Below are positions 27,454 to 53,383 of a stretch of 64,000 nt of DNA, piece by piece. The notes under the pieces are model-generated. The model searched no databases and was not told where the DNA came from. It saw only the letters and a list, made by a program, of their open reading frames with translations. This DNA comes from Clostridia bacterium (GTDB taxonomy: Bacteria > Bacillota > Clostridia > UMGS1883). The translations under genes and the position numbers were made by a program. Every line of letters begins with the position of its first letter. Within the stretch, counting starts at the first letter, position 1. The stretch covers positions 20,150 to 84,149 of the forward strand of contig JAZNSQ010000003.1 in the NCBI GenBank assembly GCA_045591265.1, read 5' to 3'.

Positions 27454-27640
27454 AAATTTACCCTTCTTCCCATTTTGTATTCTTTAATATGATACCATTA
27501 AACAAAAGATTTTTCAACATATTTTTGTTATTCTTTACAAAATAATTACAATTTTAACGCATCTTCTCTATAATCACTGACAAAAGAGTATCGATAAGCA
27601 TAAAATATTAATGTAAAACTATAATGAAAGGAAAATCCGA

Positions 27641-29069: not shown

Positions 29070-29918
29070 GTGGTGTTTCAGGATTTTTTATACAGCTTGC
29101 CCGAATTCATTATGACACTTCGGATAACAGACATACTTGATATTATCATTGTAGCTTATCTTTTCTACAAGCTTGGCTCAATCGTTCGCGAAACAAGGGC
29201 CGGCACTCTTATAAAGGGTATAATTTTACTTCTTGTTTTTACGTGGATAAGCACGATAATGCAATTAAATACCATTAATTACATATTAAGAAACGTAATG
29301 CAGTTTGGTGTTATTGCCTTTTTGGTTGTATTTCAGCCTGAGCTTAGGCGCGCACTTGAAAAAGTGGGAAGAACTAACCTTTCTACATTCTTTTCCTCTG
29401 AAAAGGATTATGTTGAGGATTTGGCAACGCAGGTTGCATCCGCTGCTTCTGCAATGAGTGCGAGGCGTATTGGTGCTCTTATCGTTTTAGAGCGTGGCAC
29501 CAAAATTGGAGACATCGTAAGAACAGGCTCTCTTATAGATTCAAATGTATCGAGTGAGCTTCTGGTAAACATTTTTATCCCCAACACACCTCTTCATGAC
29601 GGTGCGGTAATAATCCGCGAAAACAGAATTTTAGCGGCTGGATGCATTCTCCCCCTTACTCATAACGAAACGCTCAGTCAGGAGTTCGGGACAAGGCACA
29701 GGGCTGCACTTGGTCTTTCAGAAAGTTCTGATTCCGCTGTAATTGTAGTAAGTGAAGAAACGGGGAAAATCAGCTTTACAATGAATGGTAATATGAGCCG
29801 TAATTATACTGAAGATACACTGAAAAAGGCTATTATAAAGGCGCTTTCTCCTGATGCAACTCAATCTAAAAAGAAAGAGTCATCATTTATAACAAAATGG
29901 AAGGAGCGCTTAAAATGA
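29070..29918 (+). CDS. cdaA: Diadenylate cyclase CdaA (c-di-AMP synthase).
   Basis: Three N-terminal transmembrane segments and DisA_N motifs DGAVIIRENRILAAGCILPLT and RHRAALGLSE..SDSAVIVVSEETG. Confidence 0.9.
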   Translation: MVFQDFLYSLPEFIMTLRITDILDIIIVAYLFYKLGSIVRETRAGTLIKGIILLLVFTWISTIMQLNTINYILRNVMQFGVIAFLVVFQPELRRALEKVGRTNLSTFFSSEKDYVEDLATQVASAASAMSARRIGALIVLERGTKIGDIVRTGSLIDSNVSSELLVNIFIPNTPLHDGAVIIRENRILAAGCILPLTHNETLSQEFGTRHRAALGLSESSDSAVIVVSEETGKISFTMNGNMSRNYTEDTLKKAIIKALSPDATQSKKKESSFITKWKERLK

Positions 29919-30841
29919 ATATATTTGGCAAAAACAAACTAACACTTAAAATCGTCTGCACAATATTTGCCGTGATGATGTGGTTTTACGTTTCCTATCA
30001 GGAAAACCCAACAATGTCAAAAACCGTTAAAAACGTTCCTTTGGCAATTACAGGAGAGCAGGCGCTTAAAGAAAATGGATTTGCAGTATATAAAATTTCA
30101 GATACAAGCGTTGATGTTAAAGTAACTGCAAAAAGAACAACGCTTGGAAAAAACTCAAAGAAAACACTTTCTGCCGTAATAAACGTTTCTTCAATAAACG
30201 AAGAAGGAGAATATGAGCTTTCCCCTACCGTAAATGCGGCAACTTCAGATGCAACATACTACGTTAAAGGTAAGGATATAAGGGTTATTGTTGAACCTAT
30301 TGTTGAAAAATCAATTAAAATAAGGGCAGATATTGCAGAAAGCCCCAATCCTGAACTTATCATAAAAGAGAGCAGGACAATTCCTGAAAAAGTCACAGTT
30401 TCAGCGCCAAAAAGCATTGCTAACGATATTTTAGAAGTCAGGACAGAGCAGATTGTTCCTGAAAATGATAAGGTCACGGAAATAAAAGACGTAAATCTTA
30501 TTGCAATCGGTAAAAACGGAAAACCGCTTGAATGGGCAGAATGTACTCCTTCATCGGTAGATGTGAAATACAGCTTTTATGATGTTAAGACCGTTCCCGT
30601 TGTACTTAAAACATCTGACGGGAATACACATTCGCTTTCTTCTGACTACACGGTAAAAATATACGGCTCCGGCGAGAAATTTGAAAGAATTGAAAATGTC
30701 AAAACAGAGGTTCTTAACCTATCACAGTACTCCCCTTCTGATTCCGTGAGAGTTAAGCTGTCTCTTCCCGAATCGGTATATCTTGCAAGTGATGTAAACG
30801 AAATTGAAATAAAACTTTCAAAAAACTTATTTTCTAAATAA
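29897..30841 (+). CDS. cdaR: CdaR (YbbR-domain) regulator of CdaA.
   Basis: N-terminal transmembrane segment followed by repeated YbbR-like beta domains. Overlaps cdaA in operon fashion. Confidence 0.8.
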   Translation: MEGALKMNIFGKNKLTLKIVCTIFAVMMWFYVSYQENPTMSKTVKNVPLAITGEQALKENGFAVYKISDTSVDVKVTAKRTTLGKNSKKTLSAVINVSSINEEGEYELSPTVNAATSDATYYVKGKDIRVIVEPIVEKSIKIRADIAESPNPELIIKESRTIPEKVTVSAPKSIANDILEVRTEQIVPENDKVTEIKDVNLIAIGKNGKPLEWAECTPSSVDVKYSFYDVKTVPVVLKTSDGNTHSLSSDYTVKIYGSGEKFERIENVKTEVLNLSQYSPSDSVRVKLSLPESVYLASDVNEIEIKLSKNLFSK

Positions 30842-30868
30842 AAAAAGCCCGTGAGGGCTTTTTTTATT
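30841..30868. terminator. Bidirectional Rho-independent terminator.
   Basis: aaaaaagcccgtgagggcttttttt between convergent cdaR (+) and the cysteine-rich ORF (-). Confidence 0.75.
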
Positions 30869-31259
30869 CATCTTCACAACAAGAAGCACATCTTTGTTTA
30901 TCGTCTTCAAGGCAATCTTCTACCGGAGGGAAAAATTCATCTACCGGGAAGTTAATATTTGCAAACATTTCGCACGGGTCATCAGGAGTAGAAGCCACAC
31001 ATTCTTTTTCAGGAATGCAGAAGTCGTATGCAGGAATAAGAAGCTGAACATTTCTTTCAAGCTTAATAATTGTGAAAAGACCGATTGTAACGTAAATTTT
31101 ACGCTGATTTTCGCGGTTTCCTACGAAGCGGTCTTCATACACTCTGCGAACACAATCGGGGATATTGCAGATGTCTATTTCTTCGTCAGAGTATCTGCAG
31201 CATTTGTCATTAGGCTCTGCAAGCTTCGCACCGAGGCAAATCGGGTCAACTACTTCCAC
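30864..31259 (-). CDS. Uncharacterised cysteine-rich acidic small protein (131 aa), paralogous to the ORF at 43039-43533.
   Basis: About 13 Cys residues, including CC..C-x4-CVRRVY and a C-terminal CASCCEDE. GTG start only 16 nt after the recombinase stop, with no independent Shine-Dalgarno sequence, so it is probably translationally coupled. No recognisable family. Confidence 0.5.
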   Translation of the reverse strand: MEVVDPICLGAKLAEPNDKCCRYSDEEIDICNIPDCVRRVYEDRFVGNRENQRKIYVTIGLFTIIKLERNVQLLIPAYDFCIPEKECVASTPDDPCEMFANINFPVDEFFPPVEDCLEDDKQRCASCCEDE

Positions 31260-31275
31260 TGCAGACTACAAAATG

Positions 31276-32703
31276 TCACTTCCAGATTATTTTTACACTT
31301 TCGTCTTCACAAATAATTTTATCTATTACTTCTTTTAAAAAGGCGTTTGCATACTCTGTGTTTAGTGCATTTAATATAGACTGAAAAAGTGTTTTTTGTG
31401 ATATTTCTTTATCCTCGAAATTAGAAGCGCGACCATAAGAAAGGGAATTTATCTCTTTCTCTAATTTTTTGATGTGGTTTTTAAGTGATGAAAGGTCAAT
31501 TATTTCGTTTATATACATATTCATATATTTTTCTTTTTTATCGTTAAGATTTTTAATTTTTATATTTGCACCCTTATCAATGCACCGATTTTTACAGTTA
31601 ATTTCTTTTAAAAAGGACTTCTTATCTTCAATCTTTTTATATAAAAAATCGGCTATTTCATAAATCAATTCGTCTTCATTTATTTTAGAAGAATTTGAAC
31701 AAAATCTCTGACTGTTATTATTTCTTCCCGAGCATTGCCAAATGGCTTTTTTCCCTTCCTTTTTCTTTCTTATTCTTCTTGTAAATGAATAGTTGCATCT
31801 CCCACATTTTATAAGGGTGCTTAAGGGATATGCTCCGCTTTTTCGCGCAGTGCGGGATTTGTATATCTCTCTATTTTTCTCAAGAAGCATTTGTGCTTTG
31901 TTAAAGGTTTCTTCATCAATTATCTTAAGCTCAGGCTTTTTAAAAGTGAATTCAGAAACATCCTCAAGCATTTTTGTTTTTCCCGTAAGGTAGTTTGTAA
32001 CCTCACTTTTCTTTGAGATAAGAATGCCCGCATAAAGCTTATTTTCAAGTATTCTTCTGACAGTTTTCGGAGTCCATTTATCCTTATTTTTAAAAGTGGA
32101 AATATTATTTTGGGTAAGTGTGTCTGAAATTTTTCTTGTGCCCATATTTTTATTTACATACATATCAAATATTTCCTTAATGACCTTTGATTGCTCTTTA
32201 TTAATTTCAAGCGTAAAATTATCTATTCTGTCGTATCCATAAATAAAATTCGGTACTTTACCTTTTTTTGCATTTACTTTTTTCCCAAACTTCACCCTTT
32301 CAGAAAGATTTGCACTTTCCTCCTGCGCAAGCGCAGAAAACATAGTAAGCACAAACTCACTTGCACCGAGCACTGTCTGATTGGTGGATAAAAAAAGCAC
32401 GTCAACATTAAGCTCTTTAAGCTTTCTTATCGAAATTAGAAAATCAACTGTATTTCTTGCAAATCTTGAAACATCCTTTACGGCAACCAGATCAAACAAG
32501 CCAATTTTCGCATCCTCCATAAGCTTTAAAAACTCTTTTCTGTTCTTCATTTGTTTTCCGCTTATGCCTTCATCAGAATACATTTTTATAAGCGTGTGAT
32601 TGTTTCTTTTGGCAAACTCCTCAAAAAATGCTTTTTGATTTTCAAGCGATTCTAACTGTTCATCTTTATTAGTAGATACTCTGCAGTATGCTACTAATCT
32701 CAT
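31276..32703 (-). CDS. Large serine recombinase (resolvase N-domain, recombinase domain and zinc ribbon).
   Basis: N-terminal VAYCRVSTNKDEQLESLENQ with catalytic Ser and VAVKDVSRFARN. C-terminal zinc ribbon CGRCNYSF...WQCSGRNNNSQRFC, 475 aa. AAGGAGG ribosome-binding site. Confidence 0.9.
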   Translation of the reverse strand: MRLVAYCRVSTNKDEQLESLENQKAFFEEFAKRNNHTLIKMYSDEGISGKQMKNRKEFLKLMEDAKIGLFDLVAVKDVSRFARNTVDFLISIRKLKELNVDVLFLSTNQTVLGASEFVLTMFSALAQEESANLSERVKFGKKVNAKKGKVPNFIYGYDRIDNFTLEINKEQSKVIKEIFDMYVNKNMGTRKISDTLTQNNISTFKNKDKWTPKTVRRILENKLYAGILISKKSEVTNYLTGKTKMLEDVSEFTFKKPELKIIDEETFNKAQMLLEKNREIYKSRTARKSGAYPLSTLIKCGRCNYSFTRRIRKKKEGKKAIWQCSGRNNNSQRFCSNSSKINEDELIYEIADFLYKKIEDKKSFLKEINCKNRCIDKGANIKIKNLNDKKEKYMNMYINEIIDLSSLKNHIKKLEKEINSLSYGRASNFEDKEISQKTLFQSILNALNTEYANAFLKEVIDKIICEDESVKIIWK

Positions 32704-32723
32704 TTACATTCCTCCTTAAAAAA

Positions 32724-32758
32724 ACCATAATCCCATGTTTGGGGATTATGGTCTTTTA
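32724..32758 (-). terminator. Hairpin plus T-run directly upstream of the recombinase ribosome-binding site; terminator of the SGNH esterase gene and possible attenuator.
   Basis: accataatccc/gggattatggt 11-bp perfect inverted repeat with a 7-nt loop. On the minus strand it is followed by T7 and then AAGGAGG-N7-ATG of the recombinase. Confidence 0.5.
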
Positions 32759-32900
32759 TTAGAAATTATCAATTTAATTAATAGCTTTTCTATCTCTTTT
32801 CCAGAAAGCATACATTCTTTTGTAATGTGAATATATTTGACTTTCATATCTATTCCCCTTTGCTTCATTTTATTAGGGGGATTTTTAATTATTCATATTT

Positions 32901-33881
32901 TTAAAAGAAAGCTTCCTTTAATATTGGGACAAGATTTTTTGAAACGGTTTTATGCCCCTCTCTTGTGGGGTGGATTGGGTCTTTGGGAATCCATCCATCA
33001 GTATCGACAAATAAAACGCTGTCATCATTTTCCTTATTGTACTTTTTAACCATTTCACCAAGTGCCTTATTGTATCTGTAGATATAAGCAGACAGAGCCA
33101 CAATTTCCGCATCGGGGTTAATTTTTCTTACAAGCTTTATAAATTCCTCGTATGCGGTTATATATTCTTCCTCGGTTGCATCATAGTCATTTGCACCGTG
33201 ATTTATTACAATGATTTCTGCGCCTGAAGGAACCCTCTCCACATTATTAAATATATACGGATATGCTTCATATACTCTCGGCACACCGCCACTTCCGCCT
33301 TTCGTAAGACCTACTGCACCATAACCCATAGTGTAAGGCTTCATACCGAGTGCTTCTGCTGTGAGGCAGGCATAGGTTGCGGTTGAGTCATTCTGAAAGA
33401 CCATATTGTTGTGGTTATTATAACCCCCGGGAAATGGCGCCCTTTCTTCATTTGCCCATGTGCCCTCTGTTATAGAGTCACCGATAAATTCAATGATTTT
33501 ACGATTATCTTCAGGGAGTACGCCTTCACCATCTGCTTCAAAACCCGTAAAGGAAATCTTGCCTACAAGAGGTTCAAACCACCTTTGCTGGTCCTCCATA
33601 GCAGATTTGTATGTTATTTTTACAACGTGATTACCTTCTTGGGGTGTTTCGATACGGATAAAAGGCTCTACCCTTACTTCTGTCTTTGCACCGCCGTCCA
33701 CCTGAATATAGAGGTGGGGATAAGGTTCACTATTAAGTTTTGTATCAAAGGAAAGGTCACACCATTTTCCTGTGAATGCTAATTCTAAATATGAGCCGAG
33801 AGCTGTTGTTACTAAAGCGTCTTCCCTTTTTGCCCAGCGGCCAAAACTTCTTACAGAATTACTTAAATGACTTACTTTCAT
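32901..33881 (-). CDS. SGNH/GDSL-family carbohydrate esterase with an N-terminal beta-sandwich domain (CE2-like), cytoplasmic.
   Basis: GDSITEG block I with catalytic Ser, INHGANDY block III and HPTREGH block V. An N-terminal domain of about 130 aa. No signal peptide. Confidence 0.75.
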   Translation of the reverse strand: MKVSHLSNSVRSFGRWAKREDALVTTALGSYLELAFTGKWCDLSFDTKLNSEPYPHLYIQVDGGAKTEVRVEPFIRIETPQEGNHVVKITYKSAMEDQQRWFEPLVGKISFTGFEADGEGVLPEDNRKIIEFIGDSITEGTWANEERAPFPGGYNNHNNMVFQNDSTATYACLTAEALGMKPYTMGYGAVGLTKGGSGGVPRVYEAYPYIFNNVERVPSGAEIIVINHGANDYDATEEEYITAYEEFIKLVRKINPDAEIVALSAYIYRYNKALGEMVKKYNKENDDSVLFVDTDGWIPKDPIHPTREGHKTVSKNLVPILKEAFF

Positions 33882-33897
33882 AGTTCTCTCTCCTGTT

Positions 33898-34718
33898 TTA
33901 CTTTGCGTTAGTATATTTTTTTACATACTCTGTGGGCGTAATACCCATATATTCTTTATAGGCATTATTAAATGTGCGAATACTTTGAAATCCACTTTCT
34001 ATTGCGGCTTCAGTTACAAGTTTGCCTTCACCGAGCAGTTGATTTGCATTCTTTATTCGGAGTGCATTTATATACTCATTAAGACCCGTGCCCGCATATT
34101 TTGAAAAGAGAGATGCAAGTCTTCCGCGAGACATATAAAGCTTATTAGCTATAATCGAGATATTGATTTCCTCTTTAAAATGCTCATTGACATATTCAGC
34201 AATTTTGTAAAAATCTTTTCTGTCATTCTTTTTTGTTGCACTTCCCTCTTCTGCAGGGAAATACCTCATTAAAAGAAAATATATGGATGATATTACTGAC
34301 TGGAGATATGGATTATCCTGCGCTTTTTGAGCACTGTACTCTTTATCTGTAATCTCAATCAAGGCATTAAGCTCCTGCCTGAGATTTTTGACAGAGTCTA
34401 TCTCTTCAGCTAAAATATATGTTTTTAGGGGTTTATTCTTTTTTCTACACCTAAAAGAATCTTAACCGGGAATTGAATTATTCTTGCATCCACTTTTTCG
34501 CTCTTAACGAGCAAGCTATGAACAGACCTCTCACGGATTGCTATGATATCCCCTTCTTTGACTTCCGTAAGCTTTCCGTCAATGAGAAAAGAGCATTTAC
34601 CTTTAACGGGCATACATAATTCGTAGTTTTCATGCCAGTGAAAAGGATATTCTCCTTCTTTATAGGATCCAATATGCGAAATCAATTCTGCTCTGGTGAT
34701 TTCTTGTGTAATTTCCAT
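33898..34718 (-). pseudogene. AraC-family regulator split by a frameshift: cupin N-domain ORF 34425-34718 plus HTH ORF 33898-34362.
   Basis: The 97-aa cupin ORF (HWHENYEL) ends at 34425. The HTH ORF's frame is open upstream to 34461 in the +1 frame. The junction lies in homopolymer runs (T5 at 34422-26 and T6 at 34439-44 on the plus strand). The combined length of about 270 aa matches intact AraC regulators. Confidence 0.6.
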
Positions 34719-34751
34719 AATAAATCCCCCCCTGTCTGAGAAAATTTATTT

Positions 34752-36896
34752 TTAAGCGCGTTTTAATACAATTCTGAAGCTGTATTTCTGAGTGCTGTCA
34801 GGAAGATATGAAAGCTTAAGAATATTTCCAGTTTTTTCTGTCTTTTCAAAGCCTGTGTATTCCTTAAGCACATATCCATCGGGCACAAAAACACCTACTG
34901 TATACAAATCATTTTTAATAAGATTTGCACTGAAGGTAATTTTTCCGTCTTCCGTTGCCATATCCGTAATTTCCAGTGCGCCTTGTGAAATATGACGTGA
35001 TGTTGTAATTATCTGCGGTGCGCCCGTAAGCTTTCTTACGGAAAGAATACGACACTCATACGGCTTAATTGTAAGATTTATCGAATCATCAAATATGCCT
35101 AAAAATTCATCGCGGTAGTAGTCATAAACAAGATACTTCCCGTCAGCAAGATGAAGGTCTTCTGAAAGGCTTACTGTTTTAACTATTTCCTTATCCGTGG
35201 TATTAAATATACCTGTAATAAGATAATTTTCATAATCCTCATTGATATTTAAGTTAATGATAAAGTTTTCCTTATCAACACAAGGATTTACCAAATCCAT
35301 CGGATGAATGTCAAGCACGGGAATACTACGCTTTATAAGGTCAATCTTCTCTTCTGAAAGAGCATCAAATTCATCACCGAAATTCATCGGGAGTCCAAGA
35401 AGAGAAAAGAGTGCCAGCCTTGATTTAGCCTGTTCAAAGTCGCTAAACTCATCACGAAGTACAACATTATCAGGGTCATTATAAAACTGAATGTTGTGAA
35501 GCGGGTAAAACATTTCAAGCCTTTTTAAATTGCTCATATGCTCCTCCCATGTAAAGACGTCATTACCTATTCGAGCTGCATCAAATACATCGGAAGCCCA
35601 GAGAATATCACCCATAAATACACCTGCGCAAGAAAGCATATACATATCCTTTCCAAGTATTTCACGGGTTTTCTTCATAACATTTTTAATAGCATCCTTC
35701 GTTGAAAGAGTTGGGTCATACATATTTGCATGGTACTTATTATGCATAAGCATACTAATCGGAATTGTATCAAACTTAATTGCATCATAACCCCACTCAA
35801 GAACATTCTTTACCGCTACAGGAAGATACTCATTTAAGTAATGAGGATTTGAAAAATCGTAATAATATCTTCCGCACCAGGAAACCTCATCAACCAAAAG
35901 TATGTCAGGATATTTTTCTATAAACTCATTTTTGCTGGGTTCATTTGTATATCCAATCCAGATGGCAGGGATAAGCCCCAATTCCTTGATTTTATCTGCA
36001 ACGTACTTCATTCCGTTGGGATATTTTACAGGGTCAGGCTTTAATGAGTTAACGCCGTCAGTTCGTTCCGGAATTTCACCTTTAACACCATAGAAAAGAT
36101 GATGATACCATTCAAAATCCACCCATACGGCATTTGCACCGAAATCCTTAAGATTTTCAGCCTGCCACTTTGCATTTTTAAGTACTTTCTCCTCACAGGC
36201 ATCGAATTTAACGGCGTACCATGTCATCCAGCCAACAGGAGGATTGGTAAATGTAGAATTTCTGTTTATTGGCGAAAAATCAATGTGATACTTTTTAGCG
36301 AGATAGTTCTCCAAAACCTTAAATTCGAAATTCTCACCTTCTGATATTTCAGCTTCAAAGCTGTAACTATCATTGTTTTTAGAAAGCTGTGTCTTTCCTG
36401 ACTTTCCAAGAACTACTGCATTGTCTGTTTTTCGATTATAAATCGCATTATCTACAGTAGATATAGCATTCCCAACTGCGCAGCGGAAATCGGTTGCATT
36501 TCTTTCTACGCTAACCGGGAAAACATCCATATTTACGTCAAGCGAAATATCACCGACTATCTTAATAGTCTGTTTTTCCTTTGAAGCATCTTCTACAATT
36601 ATGCTTTCATTTCCAGCAGAAAACTTAAAGGATAAAACGTTTTCCTCTTCCTTGTCATTTTTAAAGTCGAGTGTAAGAAAAACAAGCTGTACCTCTTCAC
36701 TCGGAACGCAAACTGCTTCACTTACTGAAAAGTCTTTTACGTGGTTAAATTTATTCTCTTTTTTATCAAACCACTCTATATGCGCGTTTGACACTATTTC
36801 TTTTTTATCATAGAAGATACTGAAGGTATGATTTTGGGTATCATACCATACAGTATATTTATCAAATCCGCAATATCTTTTTATGTTCTGCGTCAT
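34752..36896 (-). CDS. Large cytoplasmic glycoside hydrolase, probably alpha-galactosidase-like (GH36-like TIM-barrel family).
   Basis: 714 aa. N-terminal beta-sandwich, a central barrel with WVDFEWY and AIKFDTIP (a KxD-type nucleophile motif) and C-terminal beta domains. No signal peptide. Family assignment is tentative. Confidence 0.5.
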   Translation of the reverse strand: MTQNIKRYCGFDKYTVWYDTQNHTFSIFYDKKEIVSNAHIEWFDKKENKFNHVKDFSVSEAVCVPSEEVQLVFLTLDFKNDKEEENVLSFKFSAGNESIIVEDASKEKQTIKIVGDISLDVNMDVFPVSVERNATDFRCAVGNAISTVDNAIYNRKTDNAVVLGKSGKTQLSKNNDSYSFEAEISEGENFEFKVLENYLAKKYHIDFSPINRNSTFTNPPVGWMTWYAVKFDACEEKVLKNAKWQAENLKDFGANAVWVDFEWYHHLFYGVKGEIPERTDGVNSLKPDPVKYPNGMKYVADKIKELGLIPAIWIGYTNEPSKNEFIEKYPDILLVDEVSWCGRYYYDFSNPHYLNEYLPVAVKNVLEWGYDAIKFDTIPISMLMHNKYHANMYDPTLSTKDAIKNVMKKTREILGKDMYMLSCAGVFMGDILWASDVFDAARIGNDVFTWEEHMSNLKRLEMFYPLHNIQFYNDPDNVVLRDEFSDFEQAKSRLALFSLLGLPMNFGDEFDALSEEKIDLIKRSIPVLDIHPMDLVNPCVDKENFIINLNINEDYENYLITGIFNTTDKEIVKTVSLSEDLHLADGKYLVYDYYRDEFLGIFDDSINLTIKPYECRILSVRKLTGAPQIITTSRHISQGALEITDMATEDGKITFSANLIKNDLYTVGVFVPDGYVLKEYTGFEKTEKTGNILKLSYLPDSTQKYSFRIVLKRA

Positions 36897-36918
36897 AAGA
36901 ATACTCCGTTTCTTTTAA

Positions 36919-38310
36919 TTAGAAAACTTTAACCTCAATATTAAGATACTTTTCAAATGCTTCCTTAACTGCATCCTTACAGTCGCAAAGTGCAATAGCA
37001 ATATGGTGCTTGTATCCGTTTTCTGCCATATATACGCAGATATCGTTGATGCCTTCCTTCTTAACAACCTTACCTGAGCCAAAGAATTCCTTGTCAAATG
37101 AATCCTCTGTAAACTCACCGTCAGATACAAATGCCATCATCTTGCCGTTCTCTGTCTTAAAGCTACCGAAAGTGATGGCGCCCGGAAGAATTCTTGCCTT
37201 GTTTACGCCAACGCCTGTTCCGTCACCATATGTTTTCTTAAACATAAGATGCTCTACAGTTTCGCCTTTTCCATCCATCATATTCATCGGAAGAGGACCG
37301 CAGTGGAACATTATTGCTTTATCCTTTTCGTCGCCATAGTTATTGTTAAAGTCAAGAAGTGCAACACCGTCATCTACTGCAAGTGAAAGTGCACGCATCA
37401 TTATTGCATTGTATATATCAAGCTCACATGCGGCTGCAATACCTTTTTTGTTAAGTATACCAAGGTTTGTGCAGGGCGCAAATGCAAACTCTGTCTGGAA
37501 TTCTGACCAACATCTGATAGCGATTGACTGAAGGTTGTATTCTTTAATTATATCCTCGAGTACAATCTGAAGCTTTGCAATATTGTCAAGCTTTTCTTCA
37601 GGCCAGGAGCCAAAGTCTGTAGTTTTAAGTATTTCTTCTTTTACTTTCGGAAGAAGTGCGGTGTCAACATTTCTCATACGAGCAAAAACTTCACTTAAGT
37701 CGATAGACTCAACATTAATTCCTGCTCTTTCAAGAGTTGTTTCATCAACACGTACTGTCTTAAAGGCAGTTGTTCTTGCACCGATTGCGCCGATGTTAAA
37801 ATTCTTCATTCCATCTACTATACGACAGATTCTCTCAAAGTTTAAGAGGTCCTTTTTAAAGGATTCACTGCTTGGCTTTGATACAAAATCTGTTGTCTGT
37901 GTAAACTTGATGCCTGCCTGACGAAGAAGGTTACACATAGCAAACTTTCCGCACATTGCATCACGACGGTGAGCAAAGTCCATTTTGCCGAGTTCATCAG
38001 AATATGCCTGAACAAGTATCGGCACATTTGCATTACGAAGTGCTACAACAGCACCATTTTCGTCACCAAAGTTAGGAAGTGAAAGAATAATGCCCTGGAA
38101 TTTGCCTTCGTTTTCTTTTAAGAACTGGGCAAAAAGCTCACCTTCCTCGCGAGTTTCAATCGCACCATATCTGGTCTTTGACTCATCCATACAGATGTAG
38201 TCATTTCCTGATTCTTTAATTACCTCAAAAAGCTCCTTGCGTGCCCCATCAATTACTTCACCGGGGAAGAATCCGCGATTTCCGATATAAAGCGCAAATG
38301 TCATTTTCAT
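36919..38310 (-). CDS. L-fucose/L-arabinose isomerase-family sugar isomerase.
   Basis: The FALYIGNRGFFPGEV...GIILSLPNFGDE N-terminal region is typical of the FucI/AraA fold family. The start was moved to MKMTFAL, which has an AAAGGAG ribosome-binding site. Confidence 0.7.
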   Translation of the reverse strand: MKMTFALYIGNRGFFPGEVIDGARKELFEVIKESGNDYICMDESKTRYGAIETREEGELFAQFLKENEGKFQGIILSLPNFGDENGAVVALRNANVPILVQAYSDELGKMDFAHRRDAMCGKFAMCNLLRQAGIKFTQTTDFVSKPSSESFKKDLLNFERICRIVDGMKNFNIGAIGARTTAFKTVRVDETTLERAGINVESIDLSEVFARMRNVDTALLPKVKEEILKTTDFGSWPEEKLDNIAKLQIVLEDIIKEYNLQSIAIRCWSEFQTEFAFAPCTNLGILNKKGIAAACELDIYNAIMMRALSLAVDDGVALLDFNNNYGDEKDKAIMFHCGPLPMNMMDGKGETVEHLMFKKTYGDGTGVGVNKARILPGAITFGSFKTENGKMMAFVSDGEFTEDSFDKEFFGSGKVVKKEGINDICVYMAENGYKHHIAIALCDCKDAVKEAFEKYLNIEVKVF

Positions 38311-38443
38311 AATTTCCAATCTCCTTTTTAATATACTGGTATTACCCATCTAATAACATTTTACTTTTCTTTCTTTTTCAAAAATAGTCAAATTCTTCTC
38401 TAAAAATTAGTAAAATTGTTTTATGCGTTCACAAATTTACAAT

Positions 38444-39295
38444 TTATTTCTCCAAAATAAAAGGAAATTTCTTACGATACTCACTCGGTGAGCATCCGTA
38501 ATACCTTTTAAATAGCTTTGAAAAATAATTATAATCGGGAATTCCTGATTTCACACTGATTTTCTGAATTTTCTCATCACTGTTTGTAAGAAGAGTCTTT
38601 GCCATTTCCATACGCAATTTCAGGATATAATCACCTATTGTTATATCAAAATGCTTTTTCCACAGTAAATAGAGTTTGTTTTTTGAAATCTGGAATCTTT
38701 TGCATATAATTGGGATTGATAATTCATTTTGAATATTGTTTATCAAAAATTCATTAACTTCCTCTATAAAATCGTCTTCTGTCAGCTCGATGCTTTTGCT
38801 TGTAAAAAACTGCATAATTGCTGCACGAAGGATATTTGCCGTAGACTGTATAGCCTCGTGCTTCATAATTCTTACATTTTTGTATGCCTTACTCAGCTTT
38901 TCGTAATCTAAGTCTAAATCATTACTTAAACCTAAAAGCTCATCATTACTGTCCCTTTCCGTTTCGTCCTCTCTTATTTGTCCAAAAAGAACGAAGGCTA
39001 CCACCTTTTCCTTGTAAATAATCGGCACTGCAGTATCAATAAGCTTCGCATGGCATCTATGCCTTGTGGGAAGATGCGTTATATTACATTCTTCAATGAG
39101 CTTTTTATCGCACATCAGACATCTTTTTTTCCCAATTTTGCTTTCTTTAATGAGCTTGCAAAACTGTGGCATCTCCTGCGGAGCGTAAGCAAGCTGATTC
39201 ATCTCCTTATCCCAAAAGCTTACGGTAAGGCCTGTCATATTATAAAAGTCAGACAAAAATGATTTTATTTTTTCAACATCATACTTTATAACCAT
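38444..39295 (-). CDS. PocR sensory domain plus AraC-type HTH transcriptional regulator.
   Basis: PocR-like N-terminal region (MTGLTVSFWDKEMNQLAY...CLMCDKK) and a C-terminal AraC HTH (DYNYFSKLFKRYYGCSPSEYRKK). The start was moved to MVIKYD, which has a GGAAGAGG ribosome-binding site. Confidence 0.75.
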   Translation of the reverse strand: MVIKYDVEKIKSFLSDFYNMTGLTVSFWDKEMNQLAYAPQEMPQFCKLIKESKIGKKRCLMCDKKLIEECNITHLPTRHRCHAKLIDTAVPIIYKEKVVAFVLFGQIREDETERDSNDELLGLSNDLDLDYEKLSKAYKNVRIMKHEAIQSTANILRAAIMQFFTSKSIELTEDDFIEEVNEFLINNIQNELSIPIICKRFQISKNKLYLLWKKHFDITIGDYILKLRMEMAKTLLTNSDEKIQKISVKSGIPDYNYFSKLFKRYYGCSPSEYRKKFPFILEK

Positions 39296-39373
39296 ATCTA
39301 AATACCTCTTCCTACACATTAGGCAATATATCCACGTGGGACATATTGCCTAATATTATAAGATATTTAATTA

Positions 39374-40261
39374 TTATTTCATATACTTTTTAAGCATATT
39401 CTTCTCAAATTCAAGAAGATATTTTGCTTCTGCGTCAATTCTCTCCTCTGTGGGATTTTCTACGAGGTTGCGGTATACGTGGATATCACGGCCAACCTCT
39501 CCGCCTTCCATAACAAAAGGTTCAGACACAATTCTGCCTTTATAGTTAATGTCAGCGAGAGCGCCAAAGATTTCATCCCAGTCAAGATGACCTCTGCCGG
39601 GAGCTGTACGGTTGTTTTCACCTGTGTGGAAGCTTGTGAGCTTGTCACCTACAAGGCGGATTGCATCACCGATATTATTTTCTTCAATATTCATATGGTA
39701 AGTGTCAAGAAGTACGCCGATATTTGGGCTGTCAATTTCCTCTGAATAACGAAGAGCTTCCTCTGCCGTATTTATAAGGCAGGTTTCAAAACGGTTTACT
39801 GCTTCAACACAATATGTAACTCCGCATTCTTCTGCAACCTTAATAATTTCGCGCATACTTTTTATGCTCTGTTCCCAGTAAGGACGCTTGTCCCCGAGGA
39901 AATTATCAGGTGTTCCCCATCCTGCATAGCTTACACCACTAAGAAGTGTGCCGCCGCCAACATGCATCTTGCGAACGATATTTGAAAGGTACTCTACTCC
40001 GCCTTTTCTGATGCCTTCGTCAAGAGAAGAAACATCATACGCTCTGTCAAGACCAAGACTGTATGTAAGCTCAATACCTACCTCGTCTGCAAGTGCCTTT
40101 AAAGAACGGATTTTGTCATCTGACATTTCAAGAAGTGGCTGCGCCTGAAATTCAAGCACGTCAAAGCCAATCTCTTTTGCCTTTCTTATATACTTTGCAT
40201 GGTCTGCATCCCAGTTTTTTTCCCAAAAATTCATAAAAATTCCAAGTTTATTCATTTTCAT
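39374..40261 (-). CDS. Xylose-isomerase-like TIM-barrel sugar (phosphate) isomerase/epimerase (IolE/IolI/tagatose-epimerase-like).
   Basis: 295 aa. Conserved Glu/His/Asp metal-binding pattern (CVEAVNRFE, LDTYHMNIEE). Confidence 0.8.
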   Translation of the reverse strand: MKMNKLGIFMNFWEKNWDADHAKYIRKAKEIGFDVLEFQAQPLLEMSDDKIRSLKALADEVGIELTYSLGLDRAYDVSSLDEGIRKGGVEYLSNIVRKMHVGGGTLLSGVSYAGWGTPDNFLGDKRPYWEQSIKSMREIIKVAEECGVTYCVEAVNRFETCLINTAEEALRYSEEIDSPNIGVLLDTYHMNIEENNIGDAIRLVGDKLTSFHTGENNRTAPGRGHLDWDEIFGALADINYKGRIVSEPFVMEGGEVGRDIHVYRNLVENPTEERIDAEAKYLLEFEKNMLKKYMK

Positions 40262-40370
40262 TTTCCTTTCATATTTTTGTTAATTTCAAGATATCATTTT
40301 TTTTAAATTTAGTAAATACATCTTGGAAATGTTACGACATTTTTGCCAAAACCGGCTACATTTTTTCTTT

Positions 40371-40407
40371 TCAAAAAAAGAACCGCAGAAATTTTATTCT
40401 GCGGTTC
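40371..40407 (-). terminator. Rho-independent terminator after the DegT gene.
   Basis: gaaccgcagaa-attttat-tctgcggttc hairpin, followed on the minus strand by a T7 run. Confidence 0.65.
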
Positions 40408-40418
40408 TTTAGTTATTT

Positions 40419-41726
40419 TTATCTGCCTTCCTGCATTTCCTTTACTGATTCAAGCACTGCGTCAGCCATATACCGGAGCTGCTCATCACTTAAGCCGTAA
40501 AGCGGAAGATGAGTAAATCTCTTATAGAATACTTCTTCACAGTTGGGGCATGTTTTAGCGATTTCATCTGAATCGTATCCCATATCGGAAACAACCTTAA
40601 AGCGATAAAGAGGTCCAAAGTGTGCTATCTGGGTAACACCCTTTTCTTCAAGCTTTTTCTTAAGAACCTGAACATCTCCACCAGCCTTTGCGGGGTCAAT
40701 CTGAAGAAGATAAAGATGGAATGTGGGCTTAATGTCCTCCCCACCTAAATCCTGCGCAATAATAGCATCATTTTCTTTAAAGCGGTTTGTAAGATACTGG
40801 GCAGCTTTTCTTCTTATTTCAATAATCTCTTCATTTCTTTCAACCTGAAGCTTAAGTCCGAGACCCTGAATTTCAGTTGTTGAGTGATTTCCTGCAACGA
40901 AAGGCTTTTCTTTTCCTGGGATAGGAGTTATATTATAAAGCCAATCTTTAATGGGACATGTAAAGTCAAGTCCAAGGAATCTTGCTCTCTTCATTTCATC
41001 GCCAAATCCGGGAACATTAGTTGTAACAATTCCACCCTCACCGAATGAAGTGATGTTTTTAACCTCATGCATACTAAATGATGCAAAGTCACCGATTGTA
41101 CCGATTTTTCTGCCTTTATACATTGCACCAAAAGCGTGCGCAGCATCTTCAAGAACAAGGATATTGTGCTTTTTAGCAAGCTCCATAATCGGGTCAAGGT
41201 CAACGGGGTATCCGCCGATATGTACGGGAACAATCATCTTTGTCTTAGGTGTGATTTTACGTGCAACGTCAGCGGGATCCATATTGATTGTTTTGGGATC
41301 AACGTCTGCAAAAACAAGCTTACAGCCAATAGATAAAGGATAAGCCATTGTGGCAACGAATGTGATTGCAGGAACAATTACTTCGTCTCCTTCTTTAAGA
41401 TTTGCATACTTGTATGCGATTTCAAAGCCTGCAGTAGCGTTTGTAACGAATGTTGATGTTTCTGTGCCGAGGTATTCATTACAAGCCTTTTCAGCAGCTT
41501 CTACCTGACTGCCCAAAGAAAGCTTTCCCGGAGGAGTTGAAACTGCATCAAGCTTTTTAATCTGCTTGTATACTTCGTTTATTGCGTCATCATATTCCTT
41601 TCCCTCACCCTGCATAAGAAAGCGGATGATTTCCATAAGGTCATGTGCATTATAGTTTTCGCCTACTGCTGCCCACGGAACCTTTGTCGCACCTGTGTTG
41701 TAACGAAAGTCTGTCGTCTTTTTCAT
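40419..41726 (-). CDS. DegT/DnrJ/EryC1/StrS-family PLP-dependent aminotransferase with an N-terminal extension of about 60 aa.
   Basis: 435 aa. SFSMHEVKNITS PLP-lysine motif and DAAHAFGA. AGGAGG ribosome-binding site. Confidence 0.85.
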   Translation of the reverse strand: MKKTTDFRYNTGATKVPWAAVGENYNAHDLMEIIRFLMQGEGKEYDDAINEVYKQIKKLDAVSTPPGKLSLGSQVEAAEKACNEYLGTETSTFVTNATAGFEIAYKYANLKEGDEVIVPAITFVATMAYPLSIGCKLVFADVDPKTINMDPADVARKITPKTKMIVPVHIGGYPVDLDPIMELAKKHNILVLEDAAHAFGAMYKGRKIGTIGDFASFSMHEVKNITSFGEGGIVTTNVPGFGDEMKRARFLGLDFTCPIKDWLYNITPIPGKEKPFVAGNHSTTEIQGLGLKLQVERNEEIIEIRRKAAQYLTNRFKENDAIIAQDLGGEDIKPTFHLYLLQIDPAKAGGDVQVLKKKLEEKGVTQIAHFGPLYRFKVVSDMGYDSDEIAKTCPNCEEVFYKRFTHLPLYGLSDEQLRYMADAVLESVKEMQEGR

Positions 41727-41743
41727 AAATTTTCCTCCTGTTT

Positions 41744-41778
41744 GCTATAATTAATTTATTGCTTAAATTAATTATAGC
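41744..41778. promoter_or_regulatory. 35-bp perfect palindromic operator in the divergent DegT/ROK promoter region.
   Basis: gctataattaattta-ttgct-taaattaattatagc: 15-bp perfect inverted arms separated by a 5-bp spacer. Confidence 0.55.
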
Positions 41779-41813
41779 ATTACTCTCATTTCTTGTCAAT
41801 ACTCTATAGCCGA

Positions 41814-41842
41814 AGTTGACATTTTTTCTATGTAATGTTATA
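41814..41842 (+). promoter_or_regulatory. Sigma-A-type promoter for the ROK regulator gene.
   Basis: TTGACA, 17-bp spacer, TATAAT; consensus -35 and -10 elements about 35 bp upstream of the ATG at 41876. Confidence 0.55.
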
Positions 41843-41875
41843 ATTTTTCCATAATGATGAAAAGGATTACATTCT

Positions 41876-43042
41876 ATGAAAAAACAAGTGGCAAACGTGC
41901 AATTAATGCAAAAAATGAATAGGATAAGAGTACTGAATTTAGTAAGAAAAAATCCCGATATTTCGCGTCCGCTGATTGCTGAAATGACGGGGCTTTCACT
42001 TGCTTCCATTACGAATATAACCTCGTACCTTCTTGAAAAAGGATTGCTTACCGAATGCGGGATTGAGGATGTGGCGCGCGTTGGAAGAAAAAGCACACTC
42101 TTAAGATTCGGGAAAGATGCCTACAATATGATATGCGTAGTTATTGGTGCAGATAATATATATATCGCACTCACTAATCTTGAAGGAAAAATAAGTGTTT
42201 CACTAAAAGCGGATTCTGCCTCTCTTTCCCCGCAGGAGGTTATGGCTCTTGTTTGCGCGCAGGTAAAAAAATTAGTGAATGACTATGGAAAAGAAAAAAT
42301 TTTGGGTATTGAAATTGCAATTTCCGGCATAGTGCTTGACCACAGCAGATTTATCGTGTCGGCGCATCTTAAATGGAAGTCGTTTGACATAAAAAGAATA
42401 CTTGAGGAAGAAACCGGCGTAAGTGTTTTTGTAAATAACATTACATTTTTGCGTGCCGTGGGATACTTTTGTGTAAATAAATCATTTGAAAAAGGAAATA
42501 TGCTTCTTGTTGATATGGAAAGCGGTATAGGTGCAGTTCAGTTTTACGAGGGAGAGATAAGCCAGGGAACTTTAGGGGAAATCGGACATACCACGGTATC
42601 AAGAGATGGTGAGCCGTGTTTTTGCGGAAATCGGGGTTGCCTTGAAGCTATGTGTTCAAAGAAAAGAATTCTCTCGCTTTATGAGGCATATGAAGGAAAA
42701 CGCCTTTCCTCTTTAAGCGAAATAGAAGCTCTCTTCAGAAAAAACGATAAAAACGCCGTATCTGCCGTAGTGGAATGCGGAAAATACCTTGGAATAGGTC
42801 TTGCCAATCTTGTTAATCTCTTTAATCCGTCCGTAATTGTCATTAATACAAGCGAATTTTCGCAATGCCCGTCAATTCTTGAAGAGGCGGAAAAGGAGCT
42901 TAAGGCACGTGCAAATTCAGCGCTTACAGAAAATCTGACTATAAAAAAGATAAACCAGACTTATGAGGATACAATATCTGCAAGCGCATTTGATTTGTGT
43001 AATCATATTTTTGATATTTCATCTGAACAAAACATTATTTAA
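41876..43042 (+). CDS. ROK-family transcriptional regulator (NagC/XylR type).
   Basis: N-terminal winged HTH (NRIRVLNLVRKNPDISRPLIAEMTGLS), a sugar-kinase-like fold and the ROK zinc motif CFCGNRGCLE. Confidence 0.85.
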   Translation: MKKQVANVQLMQKMNRIRVLNLVRKNPDISRPLIAEMTGLSLASITNITSYLLEKGLLTECGIEDVARVGRKSTLLRFGKDAYNMICVVIGADNIYIALTNLEGKISVSLKADSASLSPQEVMALVCAQVKKLVNDYGKEKILGIEIAISGIVLDHSRFIVSAHLKWKSFDIKRILEEETGVSVFVNNITFLRAVGYFCVNKSFEKGNMLLVDMESGIGAVQFYEGEISQGTLGEIGHTTVSRDGEPCFCGNRGCLEAMCSKKRILSLYEAYEGKRLSSLSEIEALFRKNDKNAVSAVVECGKYLGIGLANLVNLFNPSVIVINTSEFSQCPSILEEAEKELKARANSALTENLTIKKINQTYEDTISASAFDLCNHIFDISSEQNII

Positions 43043-43533
43043 AGCGAGGGGAACCCCCCTCGCTTTTTTGACATTTTGCAGTCTGTTATTTCCACGATAG
43101 CCTTTGGCATATTTGTCTTTTGCCAGAGCTGTGGGTCAAAGCTGTCCTGTTTATACTTTGATGTAAATATTTTTGCGCTCCCTTCGCTGCCGAAAAGAAC
43201 AACCTTTTTGTTAAAGGTTGAAACGCCCTCGATAGTTACAGGCCTTGCAACGCCCGTGTAAACATCGAGCGTAATTTTGAAAAAGAAATTAAGGTCAACG
43301 GTGTAGTAACCGCGGTTAAACGGCATTTTTTCAACATCGCTGAATACCCATATTACCTCTGCCTTTCTACAGCGGATTTCAACCGCGCGGTCAACCACCT
43401 CCTGACCTGTTTCAGTTAAGTACACTCTCATACATTCTATGCATTCTTTACTTCTGCACGAATCGTATATTTTATCGGTCTGAATACACACCTTTTCCTT
43501 ACAGCCGAAGGAACCGGTAAGTTTTTCTTCCAT
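43039..43533 (-). CDS. Uncharacterised cysteine-rich small protein (164 aa), paralogous to the ORF at 30864-31259.
   Basis: Strong AGGAGGA ribosome-binding site. N-terminal CKEKVC...CRSKECIECMRVY cluster resembling C..CNIPDCVRRVY of the 131-aa ORF, and YYTVDLNFFFKITL resembling IYVTIGLFTIIKL. No recognisable family. Confidence 0.5.
   Translation of the reverse strand: MEEKLTGSFGCKEKVCIQTDKIYDSCRSKECIECMRVYLTETGQEVVDRAVEIRCRKAEVIWVFSDVEKMPFNRGYYTVDLNFFFKITLDVYTGVARPVTIEGVSTFNKKVVLFGSEGSAKIFTSKYKQDSFDPQLWQKTNMPKAIVEITDCKMSKKRGGFPSL
43043..43069. terminator. Rho-independent terminator of the ROK gene; it also encodes the last 10 codons of the convergent 164-aa ORF.
   Basis: agcgaggggaacccccctcgct followed by a T6 run. 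Confidence 0.7.
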
Positions 43534-43542
43534 TAAAAATCC

Positions 43543-43601
43543 TCCTTCATAATATAGCTAGGTAGAACCCTAATACTATATTATGAAGAAGGATTTTTTT
43601 T
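43543..43601. other. Imperfect 17-bp inverted-repeat hairpin plus T8 run. It sequesters the ribosome-binding site of the 164-aa ORF and may also terminate the upstream SDR gene.
   Basis: tccttcataatatag ... ctatattatgaagaagga. The arm on the minus-strand mRNA contains the AGGAGGA Shine-Dalgarno sequence. Confidence 0.4.
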
Positions 43602-43610
43602 GTGACTTTC

Positions 43611-44333
43611 TTATATTACTATTCCGCCATCACAGCTGATTATCTGTCCTGTGATAAAGCGTGCACCACTTGACGCTAAAAAGAGTGCGAGCGCAGAAAC
43701 ATCCTCGGGCGTGCCGATAGAGGCAAGCGGGGTTTGGTTTATAAATTCTTCTTTATCCTCACTTGTTATATTTTTATTCATATCAGTATCGATAAATCCG
43801 GGGGCAATGGCATTAACCCTGATATTTGAGGGAGCAAGCTCTTTAGAAAGCGCTTTCGTAAAGGCATTTACTGCACCCTTACTTGCACTGTAACAACTCT
43901 CGCAAGAAGCACCCGTTATTCCCCACATTGAAGAAATGTTTATAATACACCCGCTTTTTTTATTTATCATTTCACGCGATGCAAACTTGCTTACTAAAAA
44001 TGTGCCCGTGATATTTGTTTTAAACACTCTTTCCCATTCTGAAAGGGCGATGTCACCTAAAATATTAAATGAGCTTACGCCTGCATTATTTATAAGCACA
44101 TCCAAAGTGCCGAAGTGAGAAATTGTTTCTTCAACAATTCTTTGTGCATCAAATTCATCTGACACATCACCCTTAACTAAAAGACTGCCCGAAAGCTCAC
44201 TTAAAAGCGCTTGCGCTTCTTTTTCACTTTTATTGTAGTTTATCGCAACATTATATCCGTTTTCGTAAAAAGTGCGCGCAATAGAGGCCCCTATTCCCCG
44301 TGATGCGCCAGTAATAAGTACAGTTTTTTTCAT
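43611..44333 (-). CDS. Short-chain dehydrogenase/reductase, FabG-like 3-oxoacyl-ACP reductase family.
   Basis: TGASRGIG Rossmann motif and YSASKGA catalytic motif, 240 aa. Confidence 0.85.
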   Translation of the reverse strand: MKKTVLITGASRGIGASIARTFYENGYNVAINYNKSEKEAQALLSELSGSLLVKGDVSDEFDAQRIVEETISHFGTLDVLINNAGVSSFNILGDIALSEWERVFKTNITGTFLVSKFASREMINKKSGCIINISSMWGITGASCESCYSASKGAVNAFTKALSKELAPSNIRVNAIAPGFIDTDMNKNITSEDKEEFINQTPLASIGTPEDVSALALFLASSGARFITGQIISCDGGIVI

Positions 44334-52768: not shown

Positions 52769-53383
52769 GTGAAAAAAATTACATTATTTGTTTTACTAAT
52801 AACTATTATTTCATTTTTACTTGCTTTTTACAGCATAAATGTTAATTCAAGCCTTTCATCGCCAATTGTAAGGCTTCATGTTATAGCTAACAGTAACAGT
52901 GACGGGGACCAGCTTTTAAAATATCAGGTCCGCGATGCGATACTTGAAAAATCAAAAGCTGATTTTACAAAAAAAGATGAAGTTATCGGGAGTCTGTCAT
53001 CTTATAAGGAAATTGCCGAGGAAGTTATAGCCAAATATGGTTGTGATTATAGCGTAAACGTTCAGTATGGGAATTTTCACTTTCCTACAAAGCATTACGA
53101 AAACATCTCCCTCCCTGCAGGCAAATATGACGCTGTGCGCGTTGTAATAGGTGAAGGAAAGGGAGAAAACTGGTGGTGTGTTCTATTCCCTCCGCTTTGC
53201 TTTGTTGATGGAACAACTGACGCATCTTCTGCTGAAGAAAAAATGCAGGCAATGCTCGGTGAAGAAGGCTATAACCTTATTAGTAAAGACTCACAAAAAG
53301 AGCTTCCAGTTAATATAAAATTTAAAATTGTTGAGCTTTACGGAAAGCTCAACACAAAAGAAAAGATTTATGCAAAATCATAA
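52769..53383 (+). CDS. spoIIR: Stage II sporulation protein R.
   Basis: Signal/transmembrane N-terminus, conserved RLHVIANSNSDGDQ and WWCVLFPPLCF motifs. Confidence 0.85.
   Translation: MKKITLFVLLITIISFLLAFYSINVNSSLSSPIVRLHVIANSNSDGDQLLKYQVRDAILEKSKADFTKKDEVIGSLSSYKEIAEEVIAKYGCDYSVNVQYGNFHFPTKHYENISLPAGKYDAVRVVIGEGKGENWWCVLFPPLCFVDGTTDASSAEEKMQAMLGEEGYNLISKDSQKELPVNIKFKIVELYGKLNTKEKIYAKS

Follow-up and report, generated by a model that had tools for sequence, protein, structure and literature searches.

Serine-recombinase elements that interrupt mother-cell sporulation genes form a known class, comprising skin in sigK, SPbeta in spsM, vfbin in spoVFB, gin in gerE and yin in yabG, and all characterized members excise during sporulation (PMC5595907, PMC10747680). 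Such elements need not be prophages, as gin illustrates (PMC5595907). Here we describe a new element of this kind, for which developmental excision is plausible. It lies in a 64,000-nt window (the whole stretch of DNA analyzed, to which all coordinates refer) of contig JAZNSQ010000003.1 from a Clostridia bacterium, of which the open reading frames (ORFs) were listed and scanned with Pfam and NCBIfam models. Counting one core sequence, the element spans 11,836 bp (31260-43095), and it is almost certainly a cargo element borne by a phage-derived integrase module and inserted in codon 148 of a gene for a cysteine-rich protein. In agreement with the structure of the class, it is intragenic, carries its integrase gene (int) at one edge, is bounded by a core with inverted arms, and leaves a target ORF that can be restored in silico.

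In Bacillus cereus ATCC 10987, gerE is interrupted by the gin element (Abe et al., 2017; PMC5595907), which resembles the window element in that it lacks phage genes, splits a small late-mother-cell gene, encodes serine recombinases and shows a short direct repeat at each junction; there, too, recombination restores the reading frame. The two differ in scale and content. The 28.6-kb gin element has three recombinases, a restriction-modification system and recJ as cargo, and a 9-bp overlap, and its excision and its factor GirX were demonstrated experimentally, whereas the window element measures 11.8 kb, has one integrase of clear phage ancestry, carries carbohydrate-metabolism genes, occupies an uncharacterized target and is known from sequence alone. 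The skin element (sigK; B. subtilis and C. difficile) and SPbeta (spsM) share with it a large serine recombinase at one end beside a gene half, attL and attR sites with inverted arms and a short common core, and a target that is, here probably, a late mother-cell gene. SPbeta further shows that one site can serve active phages and defective derivatives, and here phages and cargo islands likewise use one site. On the other hand, skin and SPbeta are prophages or remnants whose recombination directionality factors (RDFs) SprB, Skr and CD1234 are under sporulation control, whereas the window element has no phage genes beyond its int module, and neither an RDF nor a sporulation promoter was found in it. 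The yin element in yabG of Clostridium botulinum (PMC10747680) likewise has a single integrase with Resolvase, Recombinase and Zn_ribbon domains beside a gene half, and a repeat plus an inverted repeat at both ends. It is prophage-like, has a 14-bp repeat, is present in one strain only and was shown experimentally to circularize; the window site, in contrast, serves several phages as well as two or more different cargo islands. Relative to the known class, the novelty lies in target gene, integrase lineage and host clade, and in the evidence that phages and two unrelated cargo islands use one module and one site.

The uninterrupted target was identified by a CdaA scan with one genome per species, which gave 80 loci, and by tblastn comparison of all window ORFs. 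The closest relatives are two uncultured Oscillospiraceae/Clostridia metagenome-assembled genomes, L006 and L007, with CdaA proteins that are 85% and 82% identical, respectively. In L007, cdaA and cdaR are followed by homologs of a 131-aa and a 164-aa ORF and then by genes for a short-chain dehydrogenase/reductase (SDR), radA, pgsA, rimO, recX, hemW and lepA; the 5.1-kb contig of L006 has the same order up to radA, where it ends. The two small homologs in the relatives abut on the same strand with a 15-nt overlap and therefore represent one gene, which in L007 is a single ORF. This intact gene encodes about 276-277 aa and is located directly after cdaR, convergent with it. In the window it is interrupted at codon 148, and the halves map to residues 1-146 and 147-277 (Table 1). 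The 5'-half ORF as mechanically called (43039-43533, minus strand, 164 aa) runs on into the element, and neither this edge ORF nor the one at 30864-31259 (minus strand) has a Pfam or NCBIfam match. Because L006 and L007 carry the empty-site allele, the insertion is intragenic and not intergenic. A preliminary description of this DNA had anticipated relatives with an uninterrupted site that lack the element, as found here; the boundaries that it gave, 30842-43610, are about 0.9 kb too wide, since only 31260-43095 is accessory DNA and the edge ORFs are halves of one core gene.

Joining the flanks in silico gave the sequence ...CCA AAG GCT ATC GTG GAA GTA GTT GAC CCG... within an in-frame 277-aa ORF, which runs from the start at 43533 to a stop ending at 30864. 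The restored ORF is 92.7% identical to that of L007 and 89.1% identical to that of L006. It has 3 lineage-specific substitutions, compared with 4 in L007, 9 in L006 and 21 in both L091 and L092, and the restored protein departs from the family at 4 of the 126 conserved columns, which is typical of intact members. The split gene is thus without sign of decay.

Break points were placed by nucleotide alignment of the window edges to the intact genes and by direct inspection. The preliminary description had reported no flanking repeats by eye, but both ends carry a 6-bp direct repeat, TTCCAC, and inverted 17-nt arms. In a targeted search, the arm was present in exactly two copies in the 64-kb window, inverted and one per element end, with 0 expected by chance; a generic repeat finder did not place the att arms among its 25 longest pairs in the window. 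When the element ends are joined, they form a 46-bp attP, TGACATTTTGTAGTCTG-CAGTG-GA-AATAA-CAGACTGCAAAATGTCA, which is symmetric about a GA inside the common core. The middle part between the arms TGACATTTTGTAGTCTG and CAGACTGCAAAATGTCA reads CAGTGGAAATAA, and the arms are complementary at 16 of 17 positions. In a second cargo island, L173 (see below), only GA is common to both junctions, which together with the symmetry center of the window attP identifies GA as the crossover dinucleotide. The att-like imperfect inverted repeats with a common central dinucleotide that had been suggested for the edges are therefore present. The GA forms bases 1-2 of the Glu148 codon; this residue does not vary, and the PKAVVEVVDP motif around it varies little or not at all. 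The insertion is almost certainly the product of an attP x attB reaction with crossover at GA, so that one arm of attL, and likewise of attR, comes from the element and the other from the gene. Recombining attL with attR in silico gave back both the intact, undecayed ORF and the symmetric attP. The integrase stop codon is 16 bp away from the core.

The integrase has the domains of a large serine recombinase of the phage-integrase type, i.e., a resolvase domain with the catalytic serine, a recombinase domain and a zinc ribbon, and the lone recombinase of the preliminary description (475 aa) is confirmed in this respect. The N-terminal YCRVST motif is located at residues 6-11, with Ser10 as the catalytic residue, and the protein matches PHROG 95 (integrase) with E=1e-110. 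Against the NCBIfam models for XisF, CcrB and CcrC it scores far below the cut-offs, so the integrase is not an ortholog of those proteins, and no SpoIVCA or SprA model was among its NCBIfam matches. The sole 97% identical relative is encoded on L001 (SRR24653631), a 3.1-kb strain contig that matches the window both in its GDSL-int-half-gene arrangement and in its integrase-proximal junction. Window and L001 sequences are 98.6% identical (1.4% different) without gaps. The two int genes differ by 19 synonymous and 12 non-synonymous substitutions, corresponding to an omega (dN/dS) of 0.145, which indicates purifying selection on int since the insertion shared with L001.

The next relatives of the integrase are 51-62% identical and occur in phage contexts. 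Contigs L002-L004 encode a lysin amidase, a tail-fiber repeat protein, NrdD, a dUTPase and a 3D-domain protein, and L088 and L090 are similar. In L002-L005, L088 and L090, an arm as in the window is located directly downstream of int, and the palindromic sites CATTTTGTAGTC...GACTACAAAATG constitute attP. In both prophage L088/L089 and contig L090, this arm adjoins a homolog of the cysteine-rich gene, with the junction at the same codon, e.g., ...ACATTTTGTAGTCTATG-GTGGAA-GTGGTAGATCC.... A search of IMG/VR with int returned only 28% identical matches, and the best match in a cultured-phage database was an unannotated fecal contig with 42% identity. A further int of the same lineage (51% identical; L176 10001-11485) is found together with its micro-ORF in L176-L178, between a ribosomal-protein/citrate-synthase region and a gene fragment (L176 11542-11808, minus strand) that covers residues 66-154 of the cysteine-rich gene, truncated and in opposite orientation; an island with type I restriction-modification and Abi genes follows. 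The L176-L178 insertion looks decayed or rearranged.

The same target gene is split in L173 by a second non-phage element, of 5,575 bp. The order there is SDR, 5' half, HMA, GAF, GH31, AraC, micro-ORF, int (55% identical), 3' half and SpoVAD. A tblastx comparison of L173 with the window showed that only the split gene, the micro-ORF and int are common to both, the cargo being unrelated. One att site used by phages and at least two unrelated cargo islands offers direct evidence for the exchange of recombination modules between types of element. A likeness exists to the site-specific recombination (SSR) units of int, RDF and att exchanged between mobile elements, as outlined by Suzuki et al. (2020; PMC6957869): a compact module of micro-ORF, int and attP is present in phages and non-phage islands here, whose remaining content differs. 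The difference from the units as described there is that an RDF role of the micro-ORF is only proposed here.

The micro-ORF has homologs directly upstream of int in L173, L088, L002, L003, L090 and L176, with a core like KIIHxTK...IEKWLIELL. Its pN/pS was 0.26-0.80 and below 1 in all 21 of 21 pairs, with synonymous sites near saturation, and these values support translation. In several copies the sequences show an apparent ATA or ATC start after a good ribosome-binding site (RBS). Because the micro-ORF is the sole item besides int and att common to the phages and cargo islands, it is a candidate RDF or regulator of int.

The link with sporulation comes from the target gene. The cysteine-rich family comprises 2,655 homologs at E<=0.001, typically 270-290 aa long and called 'hypothetical' wherever named, with many invariant Cys, Phe and Pro residues. 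From 80 metagenomic loci retrieved for this family, 60 unique upstream regions were examined. The motif CATAnAnT[AG] was present within 140 nt of the start in 31 of these 60 regions; in shuffled sequences and in random genomic 140-mers its frequency was 3.5% and 2.3%, respectively. Alignment of the regions on this -10 motif revealed an unconstrained (C/A)AC 16 bp upstream, with A in 26/31 and C in 29/31. Since the family motif and the emerging -35 AC match the sigma-K consensus (taken from PMC3789822), the family promoter is of the sigma-K type. It is therefore likely that the target is a mother-cell sporulation gene, and a cysteine-rich product made late in the mother cell suggests a putative coat or envelope protein. 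SpoVAD is adjacent to the split gene in L173, and the presence of spoIIR in the window indicates that the host carries sporulation machinery. The sole other match to the family-derived motif in the window, AC-N17-CATAAAATA at 27580-27607 (plus strand), is found some 260 nt ahead of the class-V aminotransferase gene preceding cdaA and may have arisen by chance. A 23-nt inverted repeat (43535-43557/43576-43598, 96% complementary, 18 nt apart) would pair the -10 region of the split-gene promoter with its RBS region, and an inverted match of this repeat is also found in L006.

These observations are probably best explained as follows. A phage-derived serine-recombinase module, consisting of micro-ORF, int and attP, inserted the 11,836-bp cargo element into codon 148. 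Vegetative and forespore genomes would carry the element silently while allowing expression of its sugar-utilization cargo. Precise excision by the integrase together with a directionality factor would then restore the gene at the point where the terminal mother cell needs it; the factor might be the conserved micro-ORF or might come in trans from a related phage. By analogy with the known class, developmentally timed excision is plausible, but this part of the proposal is tentative. Among the three options offered in the preliminary description, a minimal integrative or skin-like element fits best, in view of the ORF that attL x attR recombination restores and the sigma-K-type promoter on the target. 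A bolder version, unlikely to hold in full, is that a portable cassette of a 33-43-aa micro-protein, int and attP is common to temperate phages and metabolic islands of gut/rumen-type Clostridia, that their shared target is the GA of an invariant Glu codon in a hitherto unrecognized sigma-K-controlled cysteine-rich spore-envelope gene, that the micro-protein would be the smallest known RDF, and that the islands would serve as germ-line-only cargo, eliminated from the chromosome of the mother cell in each sporulation.

Several findings weigh against excision during development. No recognizable RDF was found in the element. The micro-ORF has no family match in PHROG or Pfam, and with 33-40 aa it is shorter than the RDF CD1234 (72 aa) and the RDF candidate of yin (53 aa; PMC10747680). 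There is no recognizable sigma-70-type promoter for int, which is located directly behind a terminator-like hairpin, and a motif search of the window revealed no sigma-E- or sigma-K-type promoter upstream of int or the micro-ORF. Scans of metagenome and viral contigs for the exact attP junction gave 0 matches, so that no circular attP junction was seen; a gapped attP-arm pattern also gave 0 matches in viral contigs. A same-species empty-site allele was not found, the best full-length homolog in the protein database being 85% identical, and the undecayed state of the split gene could simply reflect a recent insertion. As to the target, its assignment to sporulation comes only from the promoter motif; the protein has no match in Pfam-A, NCBIfam, PDB sequences or Foldseek, and the AlphaFold2 model is mediocre (pLDDT 64). 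Matches to sigma-E/K motifs elsewhere in the element were rejected as evidence, since they occur only inside coding regions on the antisense strand.

The same negative results can be read as a sign that the element is stranded, i.e., that a single attP x attB event was followed by no excision, with no RDF and a poorly expressed int, so that the gene is permanently inactive and the island fixed. In related phages, the position of the int hairpin is occupied by a longer palindrome enclosing a TTGACA -35 box; the window int lacks this promoter-bearing palindrome and follows a hairpin with a T7 tract. An AraC cargo gene is frameshifted, and L176-L178 provide a decayed relic of the same integrase lineage, with an orphan int beside a truncated gene fragment. 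Nevertheless, we consider stranding rather unlikely. The low omega of 0.145 indicates that int remained under purifying selection after insertion, the two att sites and the two halves of the gene are intact without excess substitutions, and two independent cargo elements keep exactly the micro-ORF, int and att, which is hard to explain if these are useless after integration.

Another explanation is that the island is mobile but not developmental, hitch-hiking on related temperate phages that provide the RDF in trans at induction, with the sporulation-type gene being just a convenient conserved attB. The same integrase lineage and attP arms are indeed found in phage contigs and prophages from similar samples, and the cargo islands retain only the recombination module. 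The cargo, too, travels in other company. A cassette of the TIM-barrel epimerase, PocR-AraC, Fucose_iso_C-like and GH36-like genes recurs as a block in L171 and L172 with 55-56% identity, and in L172 (1765-9525) its neighbors are RepA_N, DUF6017 and a different serine recombinase of 514 aa. The metabolic cassette is therefore in a mobile-element context at least twice, which suggests that it moves on more than one kind of element. Yet the element has no packaging or replication functions, and the repeated targeting of a sigma-K-type gene fits the pattern of developmentally excised elements, which makes phage-dependent mobility as the whole explanation improbable. It also does not exclude the preferred reading of a developmentally excised element, since SPbeta does both (PMC4191935).

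That a 12.7-kb island between cdaR and the SDR gene replaced glmM and broke a cdaA-cdaR-glmM operon is very improbable: although glmM follows cdaR in more distant Clostridia and none is near cdaR in the window, the closest relatives also lack it there, L006 and L007 have the intact cysteine-rich gene at the site, so that the empty-site comparison refutes replacement, and the junctions are inside that gene and not intergenic. The gene order cdaA-cdaR-glmM, from which the preliminary description started, applies to more distant Clostridia. A glmM gene (TIGR01455, above cut-off) occurs directly after cdaR in L019 and two genes later in L014 and L016 (cdaA 54-60% identical), but not in any of the seven closest relatives, L006-L012, where cdaR is followed by convergent, unrelated genes, in L006 and L007 by the intact cysteine-rich gene. 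Because glmM is absent after cdaR across the clade, the element displaced no glmM, and the glmM slot proposed for the island falls away. No bona fide glmM was found among the scanned window ORFs. Two genes of related function were seen: one encodes a 785-aa fusion (3319-5676, plus strand) of a sugar-1-phosphate nucleotidyltransferase with a phosphohexomutase-like C-terminus, and the other, convergent with it, a 573-aa protein of the phosphoglucomutase family (5700-7421, minus strand), both far below the glmM cut-off.

The locus adds a target gene and an integrase lineage to the list of sigK, spsM, spoVFB, gerE and yabG, and does so in uncultured Oscillospiraceae-type Clostridia, in which sporulation has hardly been studied. 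It also points to a widespread, uncharacterized cysteine-rich family of more than 2,600 homologs as likely coat or envelope genes expressed late in the mother cell. The defined attP/attB pair with a GA core and the candidate minimal RDF of a new large serine integrase would be of interest for genome engineering if validated.

Table 1. Features of the element, its target gene and the flanking regions (positions in the 64,000-nt window; aa, amino acids)
Feature	Position	Strand	Remarks
cdaA	29070-29918	+	Pfam DAC and CdaA_N; left conserved flank, syntenic in L006-L012
cdaR	29897-30841	+	Pfam YbbR; left conserved flank, syntenic in L006-L012
Terminator-like bidirectional hairpin	30840-30863		AAAAAA-GCCC-GTGA-GGGC-TTTTTTT; between cdaR and 3' end of split gene; read from sequence; also in L007
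Split cysteine-rich gene, 3' half	30864-31259	-	Codons 147-277 and stop; listed as 131-aa GTG ORF; 86-89% identical to C-terminal part in L006/L007
Core copy 1	31254-31259		TTCCAC on + strand (GTGGAA in gene orientation); integrase-proximal junction
attP-derived arm P	31262-31278	-	TGACATTTTGTAGTCTG; first three bases are the integrase stop codon
Large serine recombinase/integrase (int)	31276-32703	-	475 aa; PF00239 (residues 4-149), PF07508 (170-277), PF13408 (293-352)
Perfect 11-bp hairpin and T7, terminator-like	32717-32752	-	ACCATAATCCC/GGGATTATGGT; immediately before int RBS
Micro-ORF upstream of int	32746-32868	-	40 aa from ATG 32868, or 33 aa from ATG 32847 behind AAGGGG RBS
Cargo block	32901-43042		Absent from L006/L007 at the site
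GDSL esterase	32901-33881	-	
AraC, frameshifted	33898-34718	-	
GH36-like	34752-36896	-	714 aa
Fucose_iso_C-like	36919-38349	-	
PocR-AraC	38444-39319	-	
D-psicose-3-epimerase-like TIM barrel	39374-40261	-	
DegT aminotransferase	40419-41726	-	
Divergent sigma-70-type promoters, perfect	41771-41844		Between DegT and ROK
ROK regulator	41876-43042	+	
attP-derived arm P'	43069-43085	+	TGACATTTTGCAGTCTG; inverted copy of arm P, 16/17
Core copy 2	43090-43095		TTCCAC; integrase-distal junction
Split cysteine-rich gene, 5' half	43096-43533	-	Codons 1-146, ATG at 43533; 91-93% identical to N-terminal part in L006/L007
Sigma-K-type promoter of split gene	43577-43603	-	AC-N16-CATAATATA; only 5 strict matches, this one included, in the window (both strands)
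SDR (YmfI-like reductase)	43611-44333	-	Right conserved flank restarts; syntenic in L006, L007 and L173
spoIIR	52769-53383	+	Spore_II_R, E=9e-44; between GHMP kinase and tRNA methyltransferase-like gene
Occupied junctions			GTAGTCTGCAGTGGAAGTAGTTGAC and GGCTATCGTGGAAATAACAGAC
Reconstituted attB junction (predicted)			GGCTATCGTGGAAGTAGTTGAC, AAGGCTATCGTGGAAGTAGTTGACCC
Circular attP junction (predicted)			GTCTGCAGTGGAAATAACAGAC, GTAGTCTGCAGTGGAAATAACAGACTGC

Concerning gene content, much of the preliminary description was borne out. Domain scans of the block gave GDSL, AraC, GH36-like, Fucose_iso_C-like, PocR-AraC, epimerase-like, DegT and ROK proteins, in line with the regulator-rich sugar-enzyme cluster that had been proposed (ten kb, with three regulators), and domains for phage structural, lysis or conjugation functions were not found in the block ORFs, as expected for the non-prophage element it had postulated. 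More specifically, Pfam and NCBIfam models detected no prophage genes for structural, packaging, lysis or replication functions among the element ORFs, and a Pfam scan of 31260-43095 detected no relaxase, coupling protein, type IV secretion system or RepA_N-type genes. A prophage elsewhere in the window was considered and rejected, as the remaining window contains housekeeping genes. An Rfam scan of the window gave no RNA family.

The best non-self homologs of the GH36-like protein are 56% identical. A frameshift in an A-run, ...GTAGAAAAAAGAATAAACCCC..., divides the AraC gene into a cupin ORF (97 aa) and a helix-turn-helix ORF (154 aa); the gene could be a pseudogene, or the frameshift could reflect a slippery tract or an error in sequencing the homopolymer. 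An argument from base composition for a foreign origin of the cargo was rejected, since its GC content of 0.36-0.41 resembles that of the flanks (0.38-0.43). The int module (31001-33000) has a lower GC content, 0.33, consistent with a separate phage origin of the module.

At the left flank, the short hairpin between an A-run and a T-run, ahead of the convergent ORF, upholds the view that cdaR ends in a bidirectional terminator. At the right flank, the conserved core restarts in the order SDR-radA-pgsA-rimO-recX, as had been described. The SDR protein scores 246.7 bits against the NCBIfam model for YmfI (elongation factor P 5-aminopentanone reductase; cut-off 238), and the order of SDR followed by the cysteine-rich gene recurs in L173.

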